DNA of 61,584 nt, the filler included, from Basidiobolus ranarum (taxonomy: Eukaryota), in the NCBI GenBank assembly GCA_040143965.1. It is 11 parts of 11 records of this genome, joined end to end, with 100 filler letters (N's around TTAATTAATTAA, not from the genome) between each part and the next. Parts side by side here need not be neighbours in the genome. Positions count along the whole stretch, not along the records: positions 16,848 to 22,361 come from JASJQH010001574.1; 10 more parts are not named here. One strand, 5' to 3'. The notes under the pieces are model-generated. The model did not search any database, was not told the DNA's origin, and saw nothing but the letters and a program-made list of their open reading frames with translations. The position numbers and the translations under genes were made by a program. Each line of letters starts with the position of its first letter. Position 1 is the stretch's first letter. Of this stretch, positions 1 through 22,461 are shown piece by piece.

Positions 1-338
1 AATTGGAAGTTGTCTAGCGCTGCTAGTAATATTGGTTTTGATTTGTGGCGCAACGATAATTTACAAGGCACAGAATCAGATTTCACTTGATATAACGGGA
101 TTCACTTATTCAATAATTTACTGGGCGCAGAATTAGATTTCACTTGATGCAAGAGAACTCACCTATTCTAGTGCACATCAGACTGAGCCACAAATAGTGA
201 ACTGGGCCAAGACTAATCCTACCAGCCTTAAAGAGCTTAGCCTAATAGTACTACAGTAATGTATCTACGGTGTTTTCATAACAGGTTTATGGATATAATG
301 AAGAACATGAAAGTCGTAGTAAGTCTCCTTGACAATAT

Positions 339-930
339 CTACCATTCAAGTCTCATTGATGGAGTACTAATACATTGCTTTACGGTACATTTAGTGCAAA
401 TATAGCACCTGAATTTCCATCTCTGCCATAGCCAGTTCGTTATTTCGTTTAACAGTTGTTTAATAGCAGTAGCATTTGGAAGGGTATATATGTTGATGGG
501 ACAGGGACAATCAGTCCATCCAGTTATGGTCTTTGTAGGTTTATAACCAGTCCAACTGATTAATGGTATATCCAAGGTGGCTTCATATGTAACCATGTAC
601 CAAGTTGATGTTCTATTCACCAACTCGCATGTTTCAAGCACATGAATCAGTGAAGAGGTAGAAGCAGAGTTAGTGGAGTTGAAGGTAAACTCGAATGGCT
701 TTGAGAAGATCCCACTTTCTTTGTTGATGGTTACTGGATGGGTTAAAGCGCCTTTTCCTACTTTGGAAAATCCGTCCGTACCCTAAAGCAATGGATTAGT
801 GTTCTGTCAATGCGACTTCAATAATAGATATTGGCAATGAAACTTACTACAACTTTCATGCTCTTCACTTCGATATCCTTAAATCCGTCTTAAAAGTCAC
901 GTAGGGTGCATAACGTCGTTGATCATCAGA
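339..930 (-). pseudogene. Degenerate tandem paralog of the LEA_2-like membrane protein at 2173-3088
   Basis: Exon 339-782 encodes GTDGFSKVGKGALTHPV...YEATLDIPLISWTGYKPTKT, matching the paralog's KIGEGALKHSV...YEATLNVALISWTGIKPT. The upstream exon DIEVKSMKVV|gtaagt has the same intron position but is out of frame with VTFKTDL (deletion/frameshift). Confidence 0.6.
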
Positions 931-3949: not shown

Positions 3950-4628
3950 TTACTGTTTACCCTGCGATTTCTCAGAATATTCCCGCCAGCTACCAGGGTA
4001 ATTACGAACGCTAATAGTTTATCGCATAGAATATTAGTACGATGATTGCGGTAACCCTACAAATTAAAAATAACCTATCACTTACTGAGTATACCCAAGC
4101 TGTTCGATTATTTGTTTAGCCATAGCACTTCTCACACCGGCGTGACAGTATACAACTATATTATTATCCTTGGAAATTTTTGGAAAACCATATGCAGCTA
4201 CAAAATCGTTCTCGTCAAGTTGAAGTGCCTTTGGTAATTCCTTTAAGGGAAGGTTAATAGAAGTGGGGATTTTTCCAGTTTGAACTTCACTTCTTTCTCT
4301 AACATCCACTAAGACGACATCCTAGTTTTTTTAAAGTTTCAACCAAAAGAATAAAATATATCTCTATAGTTTTTGAAAGTATATATACCTTGGAGCTCTT
4401 ATCTTTTATCAACTTGGTGAGTTCTTCATAAGTTACATCTCCGGTATCCACCCAAGTGGAATAGCTTGGTGCAAATTGTGGTGTAGAAATTAACTTCACT
4501 CGAGAAACCGAAGGTAATACGGTGTGACGTTCCAATAATTGTGACTTGTGAAGAGTACTGGTAAGAACTCTAGGGAGGAAGATACCTGGTAACTTTGCAA
4601 AGTTGCGCAATTGACTTCTAGCGAGCAT
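3950..4628 (-). CDS. Single-domain rhodanese/thiosulfate sulfurtransferase with probable mitochondrial presequence (RDL1/RDL2-like), 3 exons
   Basis: DVRERSEVQTGKIPTSINLP, active-site loop YCHAGVRS, last exon VRNYPGSWREY; basic Arg/Leu/Ser-rich N-terminus. Confidence 0.9.
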
Positions 4629-5518: not shown

Positions 5519-5618
5519 NNNNNNNNNNNNNNNNNNNNNNNNNNNNNNNNNNNNNNNNNNNNTTAATTAATTAANNNNNNNNNNNNNNNNNNNNNNNNNN
5601 NNNNNNNNNNNNNNNNNN
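5519..5618. other. Artificial contig linker (N44-TTAATTAATTAA-N44)
   Basis: Identical 100-bp six-frame-stop spacer. It recurs at 11134-11233, 16748-16847, 22362-22461, 27973-28072, 33583-33682, 39191-39290, 44799-44898, 50400-50499 and 55994-56093. Confidence 0.99.
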
Positions 5619-10250: not shown

Positions 10251-11233
10251 TACGAATGGTTCGATTGCACATTAATGCTTATTGTCAGATGCATGGCCGA
10301 GACTTTGGCCCAATCTCTATTCTAGCTATTGTGCTCTTTTGGTTCGCGTGTGGTTGGGACTTATTTGTTGAAATTTTGCCCTCGAGTGGTAACTTGACTT
10401 ATGTTTATTTCCTACTAAGGAAATCTTTGAATATATTGCCAGTATTCTATCATGAAATTATTCAACAACCGGTGTAGATCCAACTTCATAATAGTGGCTG
10501 CTAGCATTAGTTCCCAAAATAACTTGGGCGCACTCAAGCCAAATAGGCATGATGTTAAGACTTTCTCCCTCGATGTTGGATAGGTGCTCCTTTGGTGAAC
10601 AATGTTATGGGTTACCTGGTTTTACCAACAGGCTTAACATTCATATTGAATGGTGTGCGAAAGTCTATCTTTAGGTTGCAAGACGGTTCCCCTGATTGGT
10701 GGATCTAAATATTCATATATCTAGTAAAGCAAAGGTTTTTTATAGATCCAAGTGTGAGCCAGCTATTCAATAATCGTATTCAAATCTGAGCATTGACTTA
10801 ACGGAGTGTGCTACGATAATACGGATGCTACCTCAAGTTAATATAAATACTATGGTTTTGCTCTAGTGATTCCCCACTCAATAGAATCCTCTTGCAATGA
10901 TCTCACTTTCTAAGTTTACAATTATTTCGATTCTTGCTTTCTCTTTGGTAGATTGCTCGCTTGCTCAAGAATCTGGTAGTGCCATAGGCTCCGTTTCTTC
11001 TAGTCCTAGTGTGGTTTCAACCGTAATCGGCGGTCGTAGAAGAACATTCAAATTAATATGCCCACCTGTATAAAGATTCTTTAGGCTGCACATTCCAGCC
11101 ATGATGAGAATGAAAGAATTATGAATCTTGTTGNNNNNNNNNNNNNNNNNNNNNNNNNNNNNNNNNNNNNNNNNNNNTTAATTAATTAANNNNNNNNNNN
11201 NNNNNNNNNNNNNNNNNNNNNNNNNNNNNNNNN

Positions 11234-13916: not shown

Positions 13917-15920
13917 ATGGATCCTCAATCTGAAGTAATAGACGATTTCGAAACCAGCACCGTTGTCTCCAGCATCGATAGTCCAGAGCTGAAAGCATTG
14001 GAGCGTAGATTAGTATGGAAACAAGATTTATTGTAAGTCTATGCTTTTCACTTTCCTTAGTTGTAATCGCATACTGACATATTTTCTGTAGCATTTTGCC
14101 GTTCATCTCTCTTATGTATTTATTCGCTTCCTTGACTCGAGTAAGCATAGATTATCAGTTACTTTGTCCTTTCTTTAGTACTGACTGCTAAATTCAGGGC
14201 AACATTGGTAATGCTCGTCTCGGTGGTATCGAGAAAGATTTGGACATCAATGGGGCTCAATTCCACAACATCGTCACAATGTTCTTTGTTGGTATGCTTG
14301 CAAGTTAGACTCTCCTAGCCATTCGTATTTTGCTCATTTTCTTTCTAGGCTACATTATTTGCCAGATTCCATCTACTATGACTACTAGAATGTGAGTGAT
14401 GCGACGCGGTATTTCTTGAGTAGAATACTTAATAACTAGCTTTCCCTTCTTAGCGTGTCGCCTTCTAAATGGATTGGTTTCGTGATGGTTATTTGGGTAA
14501 GTCAACAGTCACTAATACAAATCGTTCATTAAATATTCATTTGTGTTTATTAATGCAGGGGATTTGCGCTACATGGTGAATATTACGCAGCTTGATTCGA
14601 TATATGTACACCAATAATAACCTCTTACCTAAAGTTTGGCAGCTAATCACACCTATTCCGAAATGATGGCTAGTAAGTACATTATGTTGATTTAGTTTGA
14701 ATTTCCAGTTCTCATATCCAGTTTAGCGCGGTTTTTCATGGGATGCTTCCAAGCTGGCTTAGGGCCAGGGATTCCTCTCTTGTTGAGTTATTGGTATAAA
14801 CGTGAAGAGATGGCCAGGCGTATGTCGATCTTCTTGGGATCTTCTACCCTTGCTGGGTTATTTGGTGGTGTCTTTGCATACGCAGTTATACGTAATCTTG
14901 ATGATTCCCATGGCTTAGCGTCCTGGAGATGGTTGTTTATTGTTGAAGGTGTACCTACAATTTTCATTGGTATCCTCTGCTTTTTCTTCCTACCAGATTA
15001 TCCTCACACCGCAAGTAAATACTTTTTAACTCCTGCTGAACGCGATCTTGCAATCAAACGTGGTCATTCTGGTGGTAATAAAGACACTAAGGCCTTTAGT
15101 AAACATCAGATGCTCAGAGCTTTTCTAGACTGGCATAACTGGCTGGCTATTGTTGTGTATGTTGGCCTTAATGTTTGTCTCTCCTCCTTTAGTACCTACT
15201 TGCCAACAATCATCAAGGCTATGGGATTTACATCCCTTCAAGCAGAGCTTCTTACCATACCCCCTTATGCCACTGGTTGCTTCACCCTTATTCTGGTCTC
15301 TTGGGTGTCGGATCTAATCAGGCAACGAAGTTTATGTATTATGGCAACCACTTCAATCGCAGCCCTAGGTTACATTCTTTTGATTATTGGAAAAAACACT
15401 GCGATGAAATATGCTGGAGCGATCCTTGTCGGTGCCGGTGTTTATCCAATCATTCCTTTAGTATGTACCATGCAACGCCTTTTGTGACTCTCATACTAAC
15501 CTTGCAGTATTATATTTTAGACTCTTACCTGGATTTCTAATAACAATCTAGGTCATACTAAACGCGGCACTGCTCTTGCTATGACGGGTACTGTTGCTCA
15601 ATGCTTCTCCATTCTAGGATCACAGGTAAGAGAACAAAGACTGCACTCAAAACTGGACTGTTGCTGAGGCTAATCATTTTGCCTATAAAACACAGATCTA
15701 TAAAAAATCTCAAGCTCCAACCTACCGTGAGGGTCATGGGGTCTGCCTCGGCTTCATGTGTCTCTCCTTTGCCACGGCTCTAGCTCTACGTACTTGTCTT
15801 GCACGAGAGAACAGAGAAAAGGATCGAATCTACGGAAAGATAGACGAGATCAATTCCAAAACCATGGAAAATTCCGATAAACTCTACGACAAAGATCCAT
15901 CCTTCCGGTATTTCTTATAA
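13917..15920 (+). CDS. MFS transporter, anion:cation symporter family (TNA1/DAL5-like), multi-exon
   Basis: ERRLVWKQDL|ILP, GNIGNARLGG, LLSYWYKREEMARR, WRWLFIVEGVPT, FLPDYP, NNLGHTKRGTA, C-terminal DKDPSFRYFL*; many short GT-AG introns. Confidence 0.93.
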
Positions 15921-18852
15921 CAGAAATGACAGGAATTAATCAGTAGATTTTAATGTAAATACCTTAAAACTTGATGGTAATTACGCTTGCTTTCAACTCT
16001 ATTACCGTTATTATTATTATGCGGATACACGTTTTCCTAAATTCAACTGTATGGTTCCTTACTAGAGTTTTATAAAAGTACCCGAAATGTTGTAAACACC
16101 AAAAATCATACAGGATATGGCAATTTACCATGTTTGAAAACCTGCGACATTTGACCCATTGCGACTTTGATTATTAATGAAGGCCAGATACATTGATTGA
16201 ATATGGCTCATGCAGATTTGGTTTTTACTTGGCCTATTCCAGGAATTTATACACACGGCCATTTTTTGTATGTTTCAGTAGCTTAATATTTATGGATTAG
16301 GGGGATGAAAACACCAGGTGGTGTGGCTTTATGTAGCTTATATACTAATCCAAACAAAGTGACAATCAAGACAACAATCTTTTAACATATTGTGACAAAA
16401 CTGGATCATATCTATACTGAAATTGATGACCAATGTAATCAAGTTCTGCAGATGTAAATATAGTGTTAATGGGCAAAGGTGGTATGTAGAAAGGAAGGTA
16501 TTCAGTATAAACTAAATGTACAATAGGACAAAAACATGGAATAATGGGGATAAAGAAAGGTGTTTTGCAGGCAAGATAAGGTTAGGGGGAGACAGTCACC
16601 AAAAGGTGAAATCTTTATTTCAAACAAAACAAAGAGGCCATAACTACTTTTGTAGTTTCTTAACTAATGTATGGAGATCTGGAGTATTTGTATGAATGTT
16701 GCAAAGCAGAAAAGTTAAGTCAGTAGAATCTAAGACACTGTTAAGTGNNNNNNNNNNNNNNNNNNNNNNNNNNNNNNNNNNNNNNNNNNNNTTAATTAAT
16801 TAANNNNNNNNNNNNNNNNNNNNNNNNNNNNNNNNNNNNNNNNNNNNGTCAAGAGCATTGATCTAAAGGCTCATACAGACATAAAAGTAATATTCAGGGT
16901 TGCTATTTGGATATGCTATCAGGAAACCAGAGAAGGCAAGCTGAAAAAGAATGTTCTTGCTGCATCCTCAACGATTGGCCTTTCCAATATGTAACAATTG
17001 TTTCCATTTGAAGCCTAAACACTTTTCCTTTGGGAGGTTGATTGGGTGAATGGGCCGTTTAATATAGCCGCATTGGCCAGTATATTTCCTTGATTGTTGA
17101 AACACTCCCGATGTGGATTGTCGTGAAACGGATTTAAAGAAATGAGGAAGAAATCTCACCGAATGATTTGCGCGTCAATGAGGGTTTTCGCAGTGACTAG
17201 TTGTAAGAGCATGGGCAAGAGGATGGGGATGGGGATGGATCATCTAGCAGGTGCATATAGTGGCAATTCATTGGCACGGTAATATTCAGCAAATAGAGAT
17301 GACATCAGAATTGCTTAATACCTGGAAATTAATATTGCTACGTCTGCCTTTGTGACGCAGAATTTCTAAATCTCAATATAAGAAGAACATTCGAACTTAA
17401 TGCAGGTATTAATGGAGTTACCGATTTTAAGTTAGAAGGGACCGAGACCTTGAACAAGGGCAAGGGTCAAGGGAGAATGTGACTCTAGTGTAGCGGAAAA
17501 TGGAACTGAGTCATATCGTAGATTGATATCTATAATTATCCGCTGATCCTAATTTAGTCTAGCCAATCACTTCATGCCTCCTCTTACCTCAATCGTCTGG
17601 GAAGATATATTTGTAATCCAAGTACAGCACTGGGCTGTAGTACTAATAGCGTTAATGTTTCTTCTATACGTTGTTGTGAGTGCGTATATAGTAAAATCCT
17701 CAGTATGTCTAGGGGTTTCATACACTTCAACATGGCATCTTGAAATCTACACAACGTGATCAAGCCAAGTTATTTGTTCTGCTGTGGCCGAAATATATGC
17801 CTTTTAATCACCCCCCTGCTCTTCCAGTAAATGGGTTCATGCGTTTCAGGTTTGAATCTTGATCACTCGACAACACATAGATTATCTACTTCTATATTCA
17901 CCTTTTCGACAACTGCAGAGGCTCAGTATTGTTTGTAGTAAATTCCAAGTCCCCACTAAACTAACAAAATGAAGTACATATACTCACAGAATCGCGTGGG
18001 ACAACTGTCAGGAATTGTGATGAGTCACCGGTTGTTATTGGTACCATATTAAACTAAATAAACTCGATGTTCCACCATACAATTTCTAGACGTAAAGTTG
18101 GCAATTGGCAACGTTACTAGATCAATTGGTGTGGCATATAATGATACTTGAAGCCAAGAAAAGGTTCCATCTAATATATATCTACAGAATTGATAATCAT
18201 GGGTGGGTGTGGACGCATATGTCGTTCATTATATACCAAAGCTATCCATGTCTCAATGAATTACTCCATTTCTTACTGGTGCTTATTAGCGCAGTGTAGG
18301 TTTATTCGTGCTTGTTCTTCAACAGCAAAATATATATTACAGTATTTCATTCTACTGATACAATATGCAACATTGCTGCTTCTCACGTATTTGAATTTAA
18401 TTTACCAAGTTAGGAAATATGCAGCAGTGTATTACTAAAGTAACTTAATAATCGAATTAAACACAACAAAGGTTGGTATTTTGACCTTTACTATCCTTTG
18501 CAGCACATACTATAGAAGTTTTTGTTATTATATGGATAATAAAAGTTTAGATACGATATTTTTGAGCAGTATTTGAGTATTCTGAAATTATCATCAGCAA
18601 TCAAGGTTTATGGCTAACGGGATCATCTATGTGATTCATGGACGCGATATCTGGTTATCCACTCGAATAGAATAGCCCAAGTGCAGATTTATGGAGATAG
18701 TCGCAATATGTATATACGTGTGTAATAGTGTGTTTCCTCAAAGTGGATGAGTTTGAATTTGGAGAGAGTTGGGTCTGATTATATACCTACCACACTCTCA
18801 TGTTAGCATTCATTCTCGTGCCTAAGCCACCAATCTTGCACCTACTATGAGA

Positions 18853-21222
18853 TAAGTGAACAAACAAATTGTAGACAAATTGTGTGTGATTCGTTGCTGT
18901 AACTCGTCAGTTTTTTTTGTGAGTATATGCTTAACAAACTTTTCTATCCGTAAACTAAAAAAAGGATGTCAATTCGCTTTTTTTCTTCTCTATATGGAAC
19001 CACCTCTAAAGATTATAGCAGTCAAAAGCTCAATCGCTGGTATTGGGTGGAAGCCACAATTCGTTCCACTACTCGTGTCACTTGTAGCTAACGTTCATAC
19101 CCTTGTGTCCCATACGTTTTCCTTTTTGAAGTACATCTTTACTCATGAACTGGAACGTGCTCCTACGTTTCTTTTAGAGGATTTCATTAATGTTGGCTAT
19201 TTTAGGGAAGTCTTTCTGTCACTCCTCAATAACTACAAGCCAGACAAACAGAAAGCTTAGACAGAATCAAGAGCCTACAAAGATCTAATACTCAAGTATC
19301 GGGATAAGTACTTTCAGTGCTGTTCTTACGAACTAGTCAACTGGAAGTATACTCATCAGATATCTCCTTATGAAGTGACAAAAAATTGTTACTGCTTATC
19401 TGAACGGGGTCAACCTTCAATTCGGAAACAAAGTTGGAATGTTTCTCAACTTGTTCTTGAAGAAGAATGAAAAAATCAAAACGCTGGAAAGCAAAATGAA
19501 GAAGAATAGGGGAAGCGAGAAAGAGATTACGGCAGTTATAAAGACAATAACAGAGCATATGAATAAGGTCAAGCTTGCTATTTCATCAAGAAATATTGAA
19601 GATATACCTAAAGAATTTCTGTCCTCAAACAATTTGGATATGATCCGTAATCTTTTTGGCGCGTATTCGACGGATTATCGATTTGCAGAAGACTCAATCT
19701 ATTACGACTGCAAAAGCAACCCTCTCAAGCATATAAAGGCGTATGCCAGACTATCAAGCATGTGCAAAGTTCTCCAAAACAAGCCATTCAACTGCTCTCC
19801 TTTAAGAAGGGGTTTCATACCTACATGACAATCGATACGTATATTTTAAATACTCAAACCTTAGAGAATTCTGTCACCAGTCACTTGGATAAAGAAGCAA
19901 TATAGGAAACAGTTATTGACCTCACACCAAAGGTAATGAAACCACAAGGAAAAAATAATTCAACGAAGTTTAGAGGTACGATATACACAGATGATGTAGG
20001 TGTGTCAGTGCTAAAGCAAAACCATAATATGAAGAAGGGTGGCAGTGGTGCAAAGTCAAAGTCTCTTGCTTCAGAAGAGGAGTTTCAGTATGTGGAGAAG
20101 TTGGGAAGAGAAGAGTTGTTAGTCGGTGTTGGCAAATGTGTGCTAATTGATCCTGGACGTCGCGATTTGCTGTACTGTGTGCACGAAGAAAGTACCGCTG
20201 AAAACAAAATGGTTTACCGATATACAAGCAACCAAAAAGCAATTGAAACAAAGTACAGAAAATTCAGGAAGCTCAGAGAGAACTTAAAGACAGACCAAGT
20301 CATCGCAGCTGAGCTTTCCCTATCGCATTTGAAATCTCCAACCATCAACAAAGACAAGTTTGCATCTTCAAGGAAAAGCCGAAGTCACTCCGGTCCTGAG
20401 AGCGTATTACTCGAATGAAGATCGCCCTGCAGGAGAAGACCGGCGTACCAGGGGTTTGTTACCCTTTAGAAAAATGAAGCTCTCAAGTTTCAATAACCAG
20501 CTACAATCAGACAAATGGCTTGCCAAGAAGCTTCGAGAGAAGTTTGGGAAGGATACTATATTAATACTTGGTAGCTGGTCGGCTGGGAATTAAAGTATCA
20601 TGAGCCCAATAGAGGCATCGGAATGAGAAAAATGTTAGCCAAAGAAGGCCTCTAGCTATACCTCCTTGACGAGTTTAAAACTTCAAGTCTGTGCCCTACT
20701 TACCAGAACGGTGAACTGGAAAAGTATAAAAAAGTACAAAATCCTAGACCATACAAAAGGGAAAAGTATCCTATTGTATATCGTCACGGCCTTTTAAGGT
20801 AAGCGCTTTTTACATGCAAGTAAAAAAATTTCAAATTCAAACCTAATTTCTGCTCAGGTGCAAAAACCAACAGTGTTTAAAGGTCCTGACCAACACTACT
20901 GAGGTAACTACTGAATTTTCTCACCATCGTCTTTGGGATCGTGACCTGGCTGCTACTTTAGACTTTAGACATATCCTTTTTAACTTGTCTTCAACTATGG
21001 AAAGATCAGAACATTTTTGCAGATTGGAAAAACCCTCTCCACCGGGTATAAAATAAAGGGTATCTCGTCAGCTAGTAACCGTCGACCAACGAAAAAAGCA
21101 AACAATCCTGTGTGATTATAGCTACACTAAACATTTGATACAGAGTAAGTCTTTGAACACTTTTTCTTTGGGCAAGTGTTTACAAAAAGAATGGGCTGTA
21201 TCTGATTTGGTTTGTTCACTTA
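18853..21222 (+). mobile_element. Non-autonomous TIR DNA transposon carrying a Fanzor gene (TA target duplication, Tc1/mariner-IS630-like ends)
   Basis: Left TA|AGTGAACAAAC-AAAT (18853-18869) and right ATTTGGTTTGTTCACT|TA (21205-21222) are inverted repeats. Only Fanzor coding sequence lies between them, with no transposase. Confidence 0.8.
18994..21056 (+). pseudogene. Fanzor1 (eukaryotic TnpB-like RNA-guided RuvC endonuclease), disrupted; one intron 20799-20857
   Basis: FIP.YMTID, FRGTIYTDDVGVS, RuvC-I LIDPGRRD (D 20149), LILGSWS, RuvC-II LLDEFKTSSLCP (E 20671), HGLLR|CKNQQC zinc finger, RuvC-III LWDRDLAA (D 20943). In-frame stops (19258, 19903, ~20653) and several frameshifts. Confidence 0.88.
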
Positions 21223-21240
21223 TGTCCAATTTATTGCGAT
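21100..21240 (+). ncRNA. Candidate Fanzor omegaRNA (scaffold to right end 21220, guide from flank ~21221-21238)
   Basis: Nested stems GATACAG(21137-43)/CTGTATC(21196-202), TCTTTG(21150-55)/CAAAAAGA(21183-90) and AACACTT(21156-62)/AAGTGTT(21174-80), between the ORF end and the right TIR, where Fanzor omegaRNAs are known to lie. Confidence 0.55.
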
Positions 21241-21935
21241 CGTCCCATTGATTTCTTCAATTCGTCTGATTTTAGATTAAAACACTGTAAACTCAGAGCA
21301 ATATGTATGAAATAATAGCTGGTCAATGACTGAAATGTATGACCTTGACCAAGTAGGTGTATACCTAAGGATCAATTGACATATATCATCGTGAACTTTA
21401 AAACCATCTATCAACAAACCAATTCAACTCATAAGTTATGTATGAGTCCAAATAAACTTATTTCCACCACTGTAAGAGAGCATTGCTTACTATTTATCAT
21501 ATGAGATCTTTTCACTGGGCTTCTTACACGTGTAGCTCACTAAAAGTATATATACATTCTCTTTTCTAACAAATATTTGTCTGTAGATGCTATAAATAAC
21601 TATCAATTTATGGTATATTGCTACTCAATACTGAGTGTTATCTCCATTATAAGATTATTGATTATATTATAGATTGACTAGTATCTGTTACCAGATCAAT
21701 CCAACAAAAAGAGAGTAATAATACACATAATCCAACAATAGTGCTAACCTAAATCATATTCTTTCAATTATCAAACCCCAACCCTATCTTAATTTAATTG
21801 ATCACTAAACTCGATGCACTCTTAAACCATTTTGGCCTTGAGAGAATCATCGACGGATATAGTAGACACTGACACAAAGCGAATATATTGTCGAAATGAC
21901 CAAATTTATTGGATATATGACATTTAGAAAGAAAA

Positions 21936-22361
21936 TTAAGCAGAAAGATCCTTCTTGAGGGTACCCATGAAAGCCTTCTTCTCTTCGGCAGTTTGGAAAC
22001 GACCGTGCCCGAATTTGGAGGAGGTATCGACAAACTTGAGGGAAACCTTTTCAAGAGCAGATCTCTTGGTGTGAACCAAAAGAGATTTACGGAGGGTCAA
22101 GACTCTCTTCTTAACACCAATACAACATCCCTTGATCATGATGAAGTCCTCCTTAACGTTACCGTAATGAGGGAAACCACCCATGGGGGTAATGTTCTTG
22201 GCAGTAAGATCGTACTCAGTAGAAGCAGAGTTCATGTCAGCACCGTTGGCAATACGATAGATCTTCTTGTTAACCTCAGTACGGTGATGGAAACCATTTT
22301 GACCAGCACGAGGAACTGAGTACATGACACGGGAAGGATGCGAAGCACCAATACAAGCAAC
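21936..22361 (-). CDS. RPL3: 60S ribosomal protein L3 (uL3), C-terminal part, truncated by contig end
   Basis: [45 protein letters not shown]. Confidence 0.98.
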
Positions 22362-22461
22362 NNNNNNNNNNNNNNNNNNNNNNNNNNNNNNNNNNNNNNN
22401 NNNNNTTAATTAATTAANNNNNNNNNNNNNNNNNNNNNNNNNNNNNNNNNNNNNNNNNNNN

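Follow-up and report, generated by a model that had tools for sequence, protein, structure and literature searches.

We analysed a window of 61,584 bases of Basidiobolus ranarum DNA (assembly GCA_040143965.1), made up of eleven ~5.5-kb pieces, in which the piece at 16848–22361 contains a decayed transposon with a Fanzor1 gene. The region 21100–21240 of this transposon is probably its 3′ untranslated region (UTR) together with the inner half of a ~110–135-nt right terminal inverted repeat (TIR) that holds two direct repeats, and the relic of an omegaRNA, the guide RNA of Fanzor nucleases, would be expected near the element end at 21287/21289. The host element appears to be a dead, left-truncated, non-autonomous cut-and-paste transposon whose Fanzor1 resembles that of Parasitella parasitica (PpFz1). 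An earlier note on this DNA had proposed, as a candidate omegaRNA scaffold, a nested hairpin between the Fanzor stop codon and an element end at ~21220. Our evidence comes from the window itself, public sequence collections and papers, the latter cited from excerpts.

The right end of the element

When metagenome contigs were scanned with a protein pattern, four loci (L001–L004) came up, among which L001 (4,815 nt) alone is close to the window copy, with 80.8% DNA identity to window positions 18958–21159. The element in L001 is bounded by TIRs of 135 nt (1721–1855 and 4446–4580; arms 87.6–89% identical), and both termini (TAGTG...CACTA) have a TA on their outer side (1721–1722 and 4579–4580). 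A three-way alignment of the two right ends, from the window and from L001, with the reverse-complemented L001 left end showed homology as far as ...TTTTAGATTAAAACACT(G/A)TA and divergence immediately after it. The corresponding window terminus is ...AAAACACTG, with CACTG ending at 21287 and TA at 21288–21289. The terminal stretch CGTCTGATTTTAGATTAAAACACTG plus TA (21263–21289) is identical to the L001 right end at 25 of 27 positions, and the window shows no similarity to L001 beyond 21289. The terminal motif has a single match in the window, at the right end (21270–21287). Judged by this alignment, the right terminus of the element is 21287/21289, not ~21222.

Since homology to L001 goes on to 21287 and the TA, the end at ~21220 had been placed 65 bases too early. 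The stretch that the earlier note had read as a flank-derived guide, TGTCCAATTTATTGCG (21223–21238), belongs to the interior of the TIR and can be aligned with either TIR of L001; because it is not flank, that guide assignment fails. The features of the element are as follows.

18849–18876 (+): remnant of the inner left TIR, ~28 nt with an internal deletion; based on the inverted repeat with 21207–21226 and on alignment to the left and right TIRs of L001.
18994–21115 (+): pseudogene of a PpFz1-like Fanzor1 that has no FRI insertion; start codon ATG at 18994, stop codon TGA at 21113–21115.
20799–20857 (+): intron of 59 nt in the pseudogene; borders from the sequence and from the junction HGLLR/C in the protein P0003.
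21116–21177 (+): unique 3′ UTR, which holds the 5′ arms of the nested hairpin; based on L001 alignments (71.4% identity without gaps).
21137–21202 (+): nested hairpin that spans the junction of UTR and TIR; the 3′ arms, namely part of AAGTGTT, CAAAAAGA and CTGTATC, fall inside the TIR.
21178–21287 (+): long right TIR, measuring 110 nt here and 133 nt plus TA in L001; based on the three-way alignment and the L001 TIR arms.
21288–21289: TA, likely one half of a target-site duplication; TA lies outside both L001 termini, and the homology of the three ends stops here.
21290–21309 (+): true flank, the expected source of a guide had this copy ever produced an omegaRNA; no L001 similarity, and analogy with SpuFz1 and the SfAV Fanzor1.

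A direct repeat of ~25 nt occurs twice within the TIR, as an inner copy at 21200–21224 (L001 4467–4491) and an outer copy at 21241–21265 (L001 4532–4556). What had been called the right TIR, 21207–21226, does form a genuine inverted repeat with the left side (18849–18868; 20 nt, 90%), but it is an inner repeat inside the long TIR. Its core, a perfect 14-nt inverted match between 21210–21223 and 18852–18865, is found at these two places only in the window; in a shuffle control for this core, 26 of 100 sequences gave at least two matches at ≤2 mismatches. The left TIR of the window copy has lost its outer ~85 nt, terminus included, and ~28 nt are left, which explains why the inner repeat was the sole visible inverted repeat.

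Two further observations concern the surroundings of L001. In its right flank, thirteen bases beyond the TA, AUAGUGUUU is found at 4593–4601, and in the minimum free energy (MFE) structure of a longer L001 stretch it pairs with the element-terminal AAACACUAU; it could be a chance occurrence or a fragment from the left terminus of another copy. An open frame that precedes the Fanzor element in L001, at 1–906 (+), weakly matches tyrosine recombinases (Phage_integrase, E = 6.4e-4, under the Pfam cut-off) and is followed at 908–1234 by a segment with perfect 43-nt inverted repeats (975–1017 and 1192–1234). The frame and the repeats may represent a Crypton- or DIRS-like neighbour.

The gene is a Fanzor1 pseudogene

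In a PDB sequence search, the longest open piece of the gene (167 aa) matched P. parasitica Fanzor1 (9cf0) with E = 2.3e-27 and Spizellomyces punctatus Fanzor1 (SpuFz1; 8gkh) with E = 2.2e-11, and the similarity to characterised Fanzor1 proteins spans the WED/RuvC core. The earlier note had rightly recognised the locus as the 3′ end of a Fanzor element, which is of the Fanzor1 type. A full HMMER scan of 1.84 billion representatives returned 464 relatives at E ≤ 0.001. Pfam searches with five window pieces and the Fanzor open reading frames (ORFs) of L001 gave no meaningful match. The position of the stop codon was set by comparing C-termini with P0002 and P0003, and removal of the 59-nt intron restored the same junction as in P0003.

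Codon-wise comparison with L001 revealed three premature TAG stops in the window copy (19258, 19903 and 20653). The same comparison showed at least five frameshifting indels (~19378, 19822, 20362, 20590 and 21035), and two more, which are uncertain, where the last exon begins. At the three stops L001 has TCG, TGG and CAG, respectively; those at 19903 and 20653 are single G-to-A or C-to-T transitions, and that at 19258 is a C-to-A transversion. The motif-like stretches VLIDPGRRD, LLDEFKTS and WDRDLAA, putatively RuvC I–III, are spread over three different frames, and the window copy contains no intact ORF with RuvC catalytic motifs. With three stops and at least five frameshifts, the Fanzor1 copy in the window is a dead pseudogene.

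The Fanzor of L001 is nearly intact, as read-through requires one frameshift near 2430 and one intron. Its 556-aa ORF matches PpFz1 with E = 5.8e-136, in two stretches that jump the ~105-aa insertion of PpFz1 and cover the regions holding the nuclease motifs, and matches SpuFz1 with E = 2.6e-41. Because the alignment skips these ~105 residues, the Fanzor1 family of the window and L001 lacks the FRI domain. The FRI (cyclophilin-binding) insertion is missing in L001 2371–4038 relative to 9cf0, and some more distant matches (P0013, P0020) have a long insertion there.

The remaining loci are more distant. L002–L004 are 45, 38 and 31% identical; scanning by protein gave one distant locus in genome contigs (L005, 42%) and ten giant-virus loci in viral contigs (29–35%). 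At the DNA level the right end was alignable in none of L002–L005 and the giant-virus loci. After inspection of its ends, L002 was set aside as a different family. An exact scan with a 21-nt terminal pattern gave no match in genome contigs or in viral contigs, and no further copy of the element was found inside the 61.6-kb window by blastn, by tblastn with six protein pieces or with TIR and terminus motifs.

The nested hairpin is real and thermodynamically unexceptional

All the motifs from which the hairpin had been built are present in the sequence, each within one base of its described place. The outer stem pairs GATACAG (21137–21143) with CTGTATC (21196–21202). The middle stem pairs TCTTTG (21150–21155) with CAAAAAGA (21183–21190), next to TA at 21181–21182, and the innermost stem pairs AACACTT (21156–21162) with AAGTGTT (21174–21180). 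The extension arms are AAAC (21129–21132) and GTTT (21210–21213). RNAfold reproduced the nested fold at −17.1 kcal/mol in a 66-nt cut-out with borders chosen after the fact (z −2.74; 3 of 200 shuffles as good), and the opposite strand of the same 66 nt gave z −3.28. In wider contexts the z scores were −0.15 (141 nt; 76 of 200 shuffles as good), +0.18 (195 nt) and +0.13 (140 nt). Across the window, scanned on both strands at step 3, 945 of 39,912 66-nt segments reached −17.1 kcal/mol or better, at 145 separate places or about one per 420 bases. With z scores near zero in wider contexts and so many equally good places, the stability of the hairpin is within the chance range for this DNA, and the idea that it exceeded chance was not borne out. 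The nested hairpin is thus real and thermodynamically unexceptional.

The same bases are contested by an alternative hairpin at 21163–21230, in which GGGCAAGTG pairs with CACTTATGTCC and ACAAA/TTTGT is enclosed. Starting at 21163–21169, it reaches −18.7 kcal/mol per 66-nt window, slightly better than the nested hairpin. The majority of its pairs are identical in the three right-end sequences, and with most pairs unchanged it is neither supported nor excluded.

The hairpin lies 85–150 nt upstream of the true element end. The explanation first offered for it was that 21137–21202 is the omegaRNA scaffold, that the element ends at ~21220–21222 and that the guide is (TA)TGTCCAATTTATTGCG. We regard this as extremely improbable. 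The hairpin does stand out at its own borders, and the perfect 14-nt match could suggest an end there; however, 21223–21289 is homologous to both L001 TIRs and is therefore element, not flank, and the 14-nt match is the inner repeat within a long TIR, of which this copy has lost the outer left portion. The innermost and outer stems, at 7 bp each, equal the reported length of stem-loop 1 (SL1) of Fanzor1 omegaRNAs, a coincidence of length only, and in L001 the innermost stem keeps three of seven pairs by eye.

A second possibility is that a long omegaRNA, with a scaffold of ~150 nt as in GtFz1, began at the hairpin or before it and ran through the whole TIR to 21287/21289, so that the hairpin would be a genuine 5′ stem-loop and the guide would lie past 21289. 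The lengths reported for Fanzor1 omegaRNAs in excerpts of PMC11423790, from 75 to 150 nt, the latter being the approximate scaffold length of GtFz1, leave room for such an RNA. Comparison with L001 is consistent with it in part. The outer stem, GATATAG/CTGTATT in L001, keeps all seven pairs, two of them as G-U after C-to-T changes. TCTTTG and CAAAAAGA are identical in both copies. On the minus strand, C-A mismatches would take the place of both G-U pairs, a faint hint of a plus-strand RNA; but by our estimate two transitions that preserve pairs are expected about once in four by chance. The inner stem is lost in L001, which has a 23-nt insertion in the loop, and although the MFE structure of the equivalent L001 cut-out retains the outer stem, it folds at −9.5 kcal/mol with z +0.99. 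Also against it are the stabler competing hairpin and the closest characterised relative, PpFz1, whose scaffold is described as the smallest known (75 nt including the guide; PMC11423790). On balance we consider this long RNA unlikely.

Between the two copies compared, the outer stem recurs and the innermost one does not. The impression of the earlier note that the stems were better preserved than the ORF was not borne out: identity between the copies is 82.4% in the ORF, against 71.4% in the unique 3′ UTR and 78.0% in the right TIR without gaps (45.5% and 59.9% with gaps). The nested hairpin is at most an accessory 5′ part of an omegaRNA and more probably a partly copy-specific palindrome.

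Where a guide RNA would lie

The identity of the gene, its decay, how far the TIR extends and the right boundary are shown here; the existence of an omegaRNA, the place of its scaffold and the start of its guide we infer by analogy with characterised Fanzor1 systems. In SpuFz1, a 75-nt scaffold spans the stretch from the stop codon to the 3′ inverted repeat (IR), and transcripts extend 14–15 nt past it (excerpts of PMC10432273). The complete omegaRNA of PpFz1 measures 75 nt; its SL1 has 7 bp and its SL2 has 4 bp, and the target-adjacent motif (TAM) is ATN (excerpts of PMC11423790). In Fanzor1s of insect viruses such as SfAV, the TIR and the target-site duplication belong to the stem adjoining the guide (excerpts of bioRxiv 10.1101/2023.08.09.552727).

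Following these models, live ancestors of the element most likely made an omegaRNA whose scaffold would comprise the last several dozen to ~150 nt before 21287/21289 and would lie largely or wholly within the TIR. The flank past 21289 would supply the guide, starting at ~21290, and its target would be the empty site, next to a TAM made of the left flank and TA. The borders first proposed fail in this respect, as they put the guide inside the TIR; the corrected end at 21287/21289 is positionally compatible with the known arrangement. The three nucleotides preceding the left terminus of L001 are ATA, which fits the PpFz1 TAM, although a fit is expected about once in 16 by chance and is weak evidence.

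Several results weigh against an omegaRNA relic at this end. RNAalifold on the three right-end sequences gave −2.39 kcal/mol with a covariation term of +0.34. The terminal 80–90 nt folded no better than shuffles (z +1.80, +0.31, −0.61, −0.63, +0.39 and −0.20), and within their last 60 nt the three right ends share no 7-bp hairpin. The helices that can form in each of the three are AU/GU-rich candidates of 4–7 bp, such as the 4-bp GUCU/AGAU, which stem from the repeated GTCTAA/TTAGA motifs, and none is convincing. Rfam, run on the whole window at the gathering threshold, returned no match. The boundary itself rests on three ends from two elements, L001 being the single close relative in the collections searched. 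A TA duplication is not separable from a 4-bp TRTA duplication either; the bases in L001, the one complete copy, also fit a 4-bp TATA.

A pairing of AGTGTTT (21175–21181) with AAACACT (21280–21286) was also considered; it is possible in the window, is interrupted in L001 (4 + 2 bp, by eye) and is unsupported.

The missing thermodynamic and covariation signal at the three right ends is what would be seen if the element encoded no guide RNA at all, the conservation of the right end reflecting transposase-binding sites and the hairpin being a chance structure or a feature of an mRNA 3′ end. The layout of repeats within the TIR, with a terminal site and inner and outer direct repeats, agrees with this, as do the equal conservation of the left and right TIRs of L001 (87.6%) and the many window places that fold as well as the hairpin. 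We nevertheless hold it to be quite unlikely, given that L001 encodes a nearly intact Fanzor aligned with PpFz1 over the nuclease-motif regions. A guide RNA whose scaffold ends near 21287/21289 stays our preferred reading.

A more speculative possibility concerns both ends. The TIR (~135 nt) is longer than the PpFz1 scaffold (~55 nt plus guide), and the left end would therefore mirror the scaffold. If both ends were transcribed outward, two guide RNAs could result, one per flank, with the inner and outer repeats serving as transposase sites and as RNA elements. We judge this to be very unlikely; if true, the empty site would be marked on each side by the Fanzor element.

Genomic setting

The pieces of the window are separated by ten N44-TTAATTAATTAA-N44 spacers (5519–5618, 11134–11233, 16748–16847, 22362–22461 and six more), and their lengths fall slightly along the window (5518, 5515, 5514, 5514, 5511 and so on). 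The window looks like size-sorted contigs linked by a six-frame stop spacer, and pieces that adjoin here may lie apart in the genome. Some 650 nt past the right terminus of the transposon, positions 21939–22325 (−) encode the C-terminal portion of ribosomal protein L3 (Pfam Ribosomal_L3, E = 4.6e-47). The piece before the one with the transposon contains a fragment of a major facilitator superfamily (MFS) transporter at 14738–15484.

Relationship to other Fanzor1 elements

The window and L001 elements end in YAGTG...CACTR with TA outside, and CAGTG-type ends are usual for Tc1-like elements. In this they would resemble the Tc1/mariner-type Fanzor1 elements (PUl-4, PGv-1 and others), which carry Fanzor1 only and have mariner-like TIRs and TA duplications (Bao & Jurka 2013, excerpts of PMC3627910). 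No transposase partner was seen, either in the window or in L001, and any assignment to the Tc1/mariner superfamily is tentative. Other Fanzor1 families of Mucorales have been placed in MuDR with 9-bp duplications (excerpts of PMC3627910); a 9-bp duplication is absent in L001. The same excerpts list four Fanzor1 families in Rhizopus oryzae, ten in Mucor circinelloides and three in Phycomyces blakesleeanus.

PpFz1 (PDB 9cf0–9cf3; excerpts of PMC11423790) is the closest solved protein and has the same domain order, and the ATA before the left terminus of L001 fits its ATN motif. PpFz1 differs in its ~105-aa FRI insertion, which is missing in the window/L001 family, and the window copy is a pseudogene. 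SPu-1, the element of SpuFz1, is likewise a non-autonomous TIR element of ~2–3 kb with Fanzor1 only and a putative TA duplication (excerpts of PMC3627910 and PMC10432273), and its omegaRNA comes from the stretch bounded by its stop codon and right IR, with the guide taken from the flank (PMC10432273). In contrast to the ~135-nt TIR with internal direct repeats described here, the IRs of SPu-1 measure 30–33 nt; its stop codon lies ~75–80 nt from the terminus, versus 172 nt in the window copy, and the protein similarity is weaker (E = 2.2e-11).

The window copy is dead and represents, in an ordinary way, a kind of Fanzor1 transposon that is already known. The value of the finding is mainly one of annotation: to a PpFz1-like family without FRI and with unusually long TIRs it adds a decayed copy, together with the nearly intact relative in L001. 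It also carries the lesson that a single decayed copy is insufficient for predicting a Fanzor guide, as an inverted match of short length can turn out to lie in the interior of a longer TIR as one of its repeats, and the guide then shifts by tens of bases. Tests on an intact member of this family could show how one long TIR accommodates both a guide-RNA scaffold and repeats bound by a transposase.

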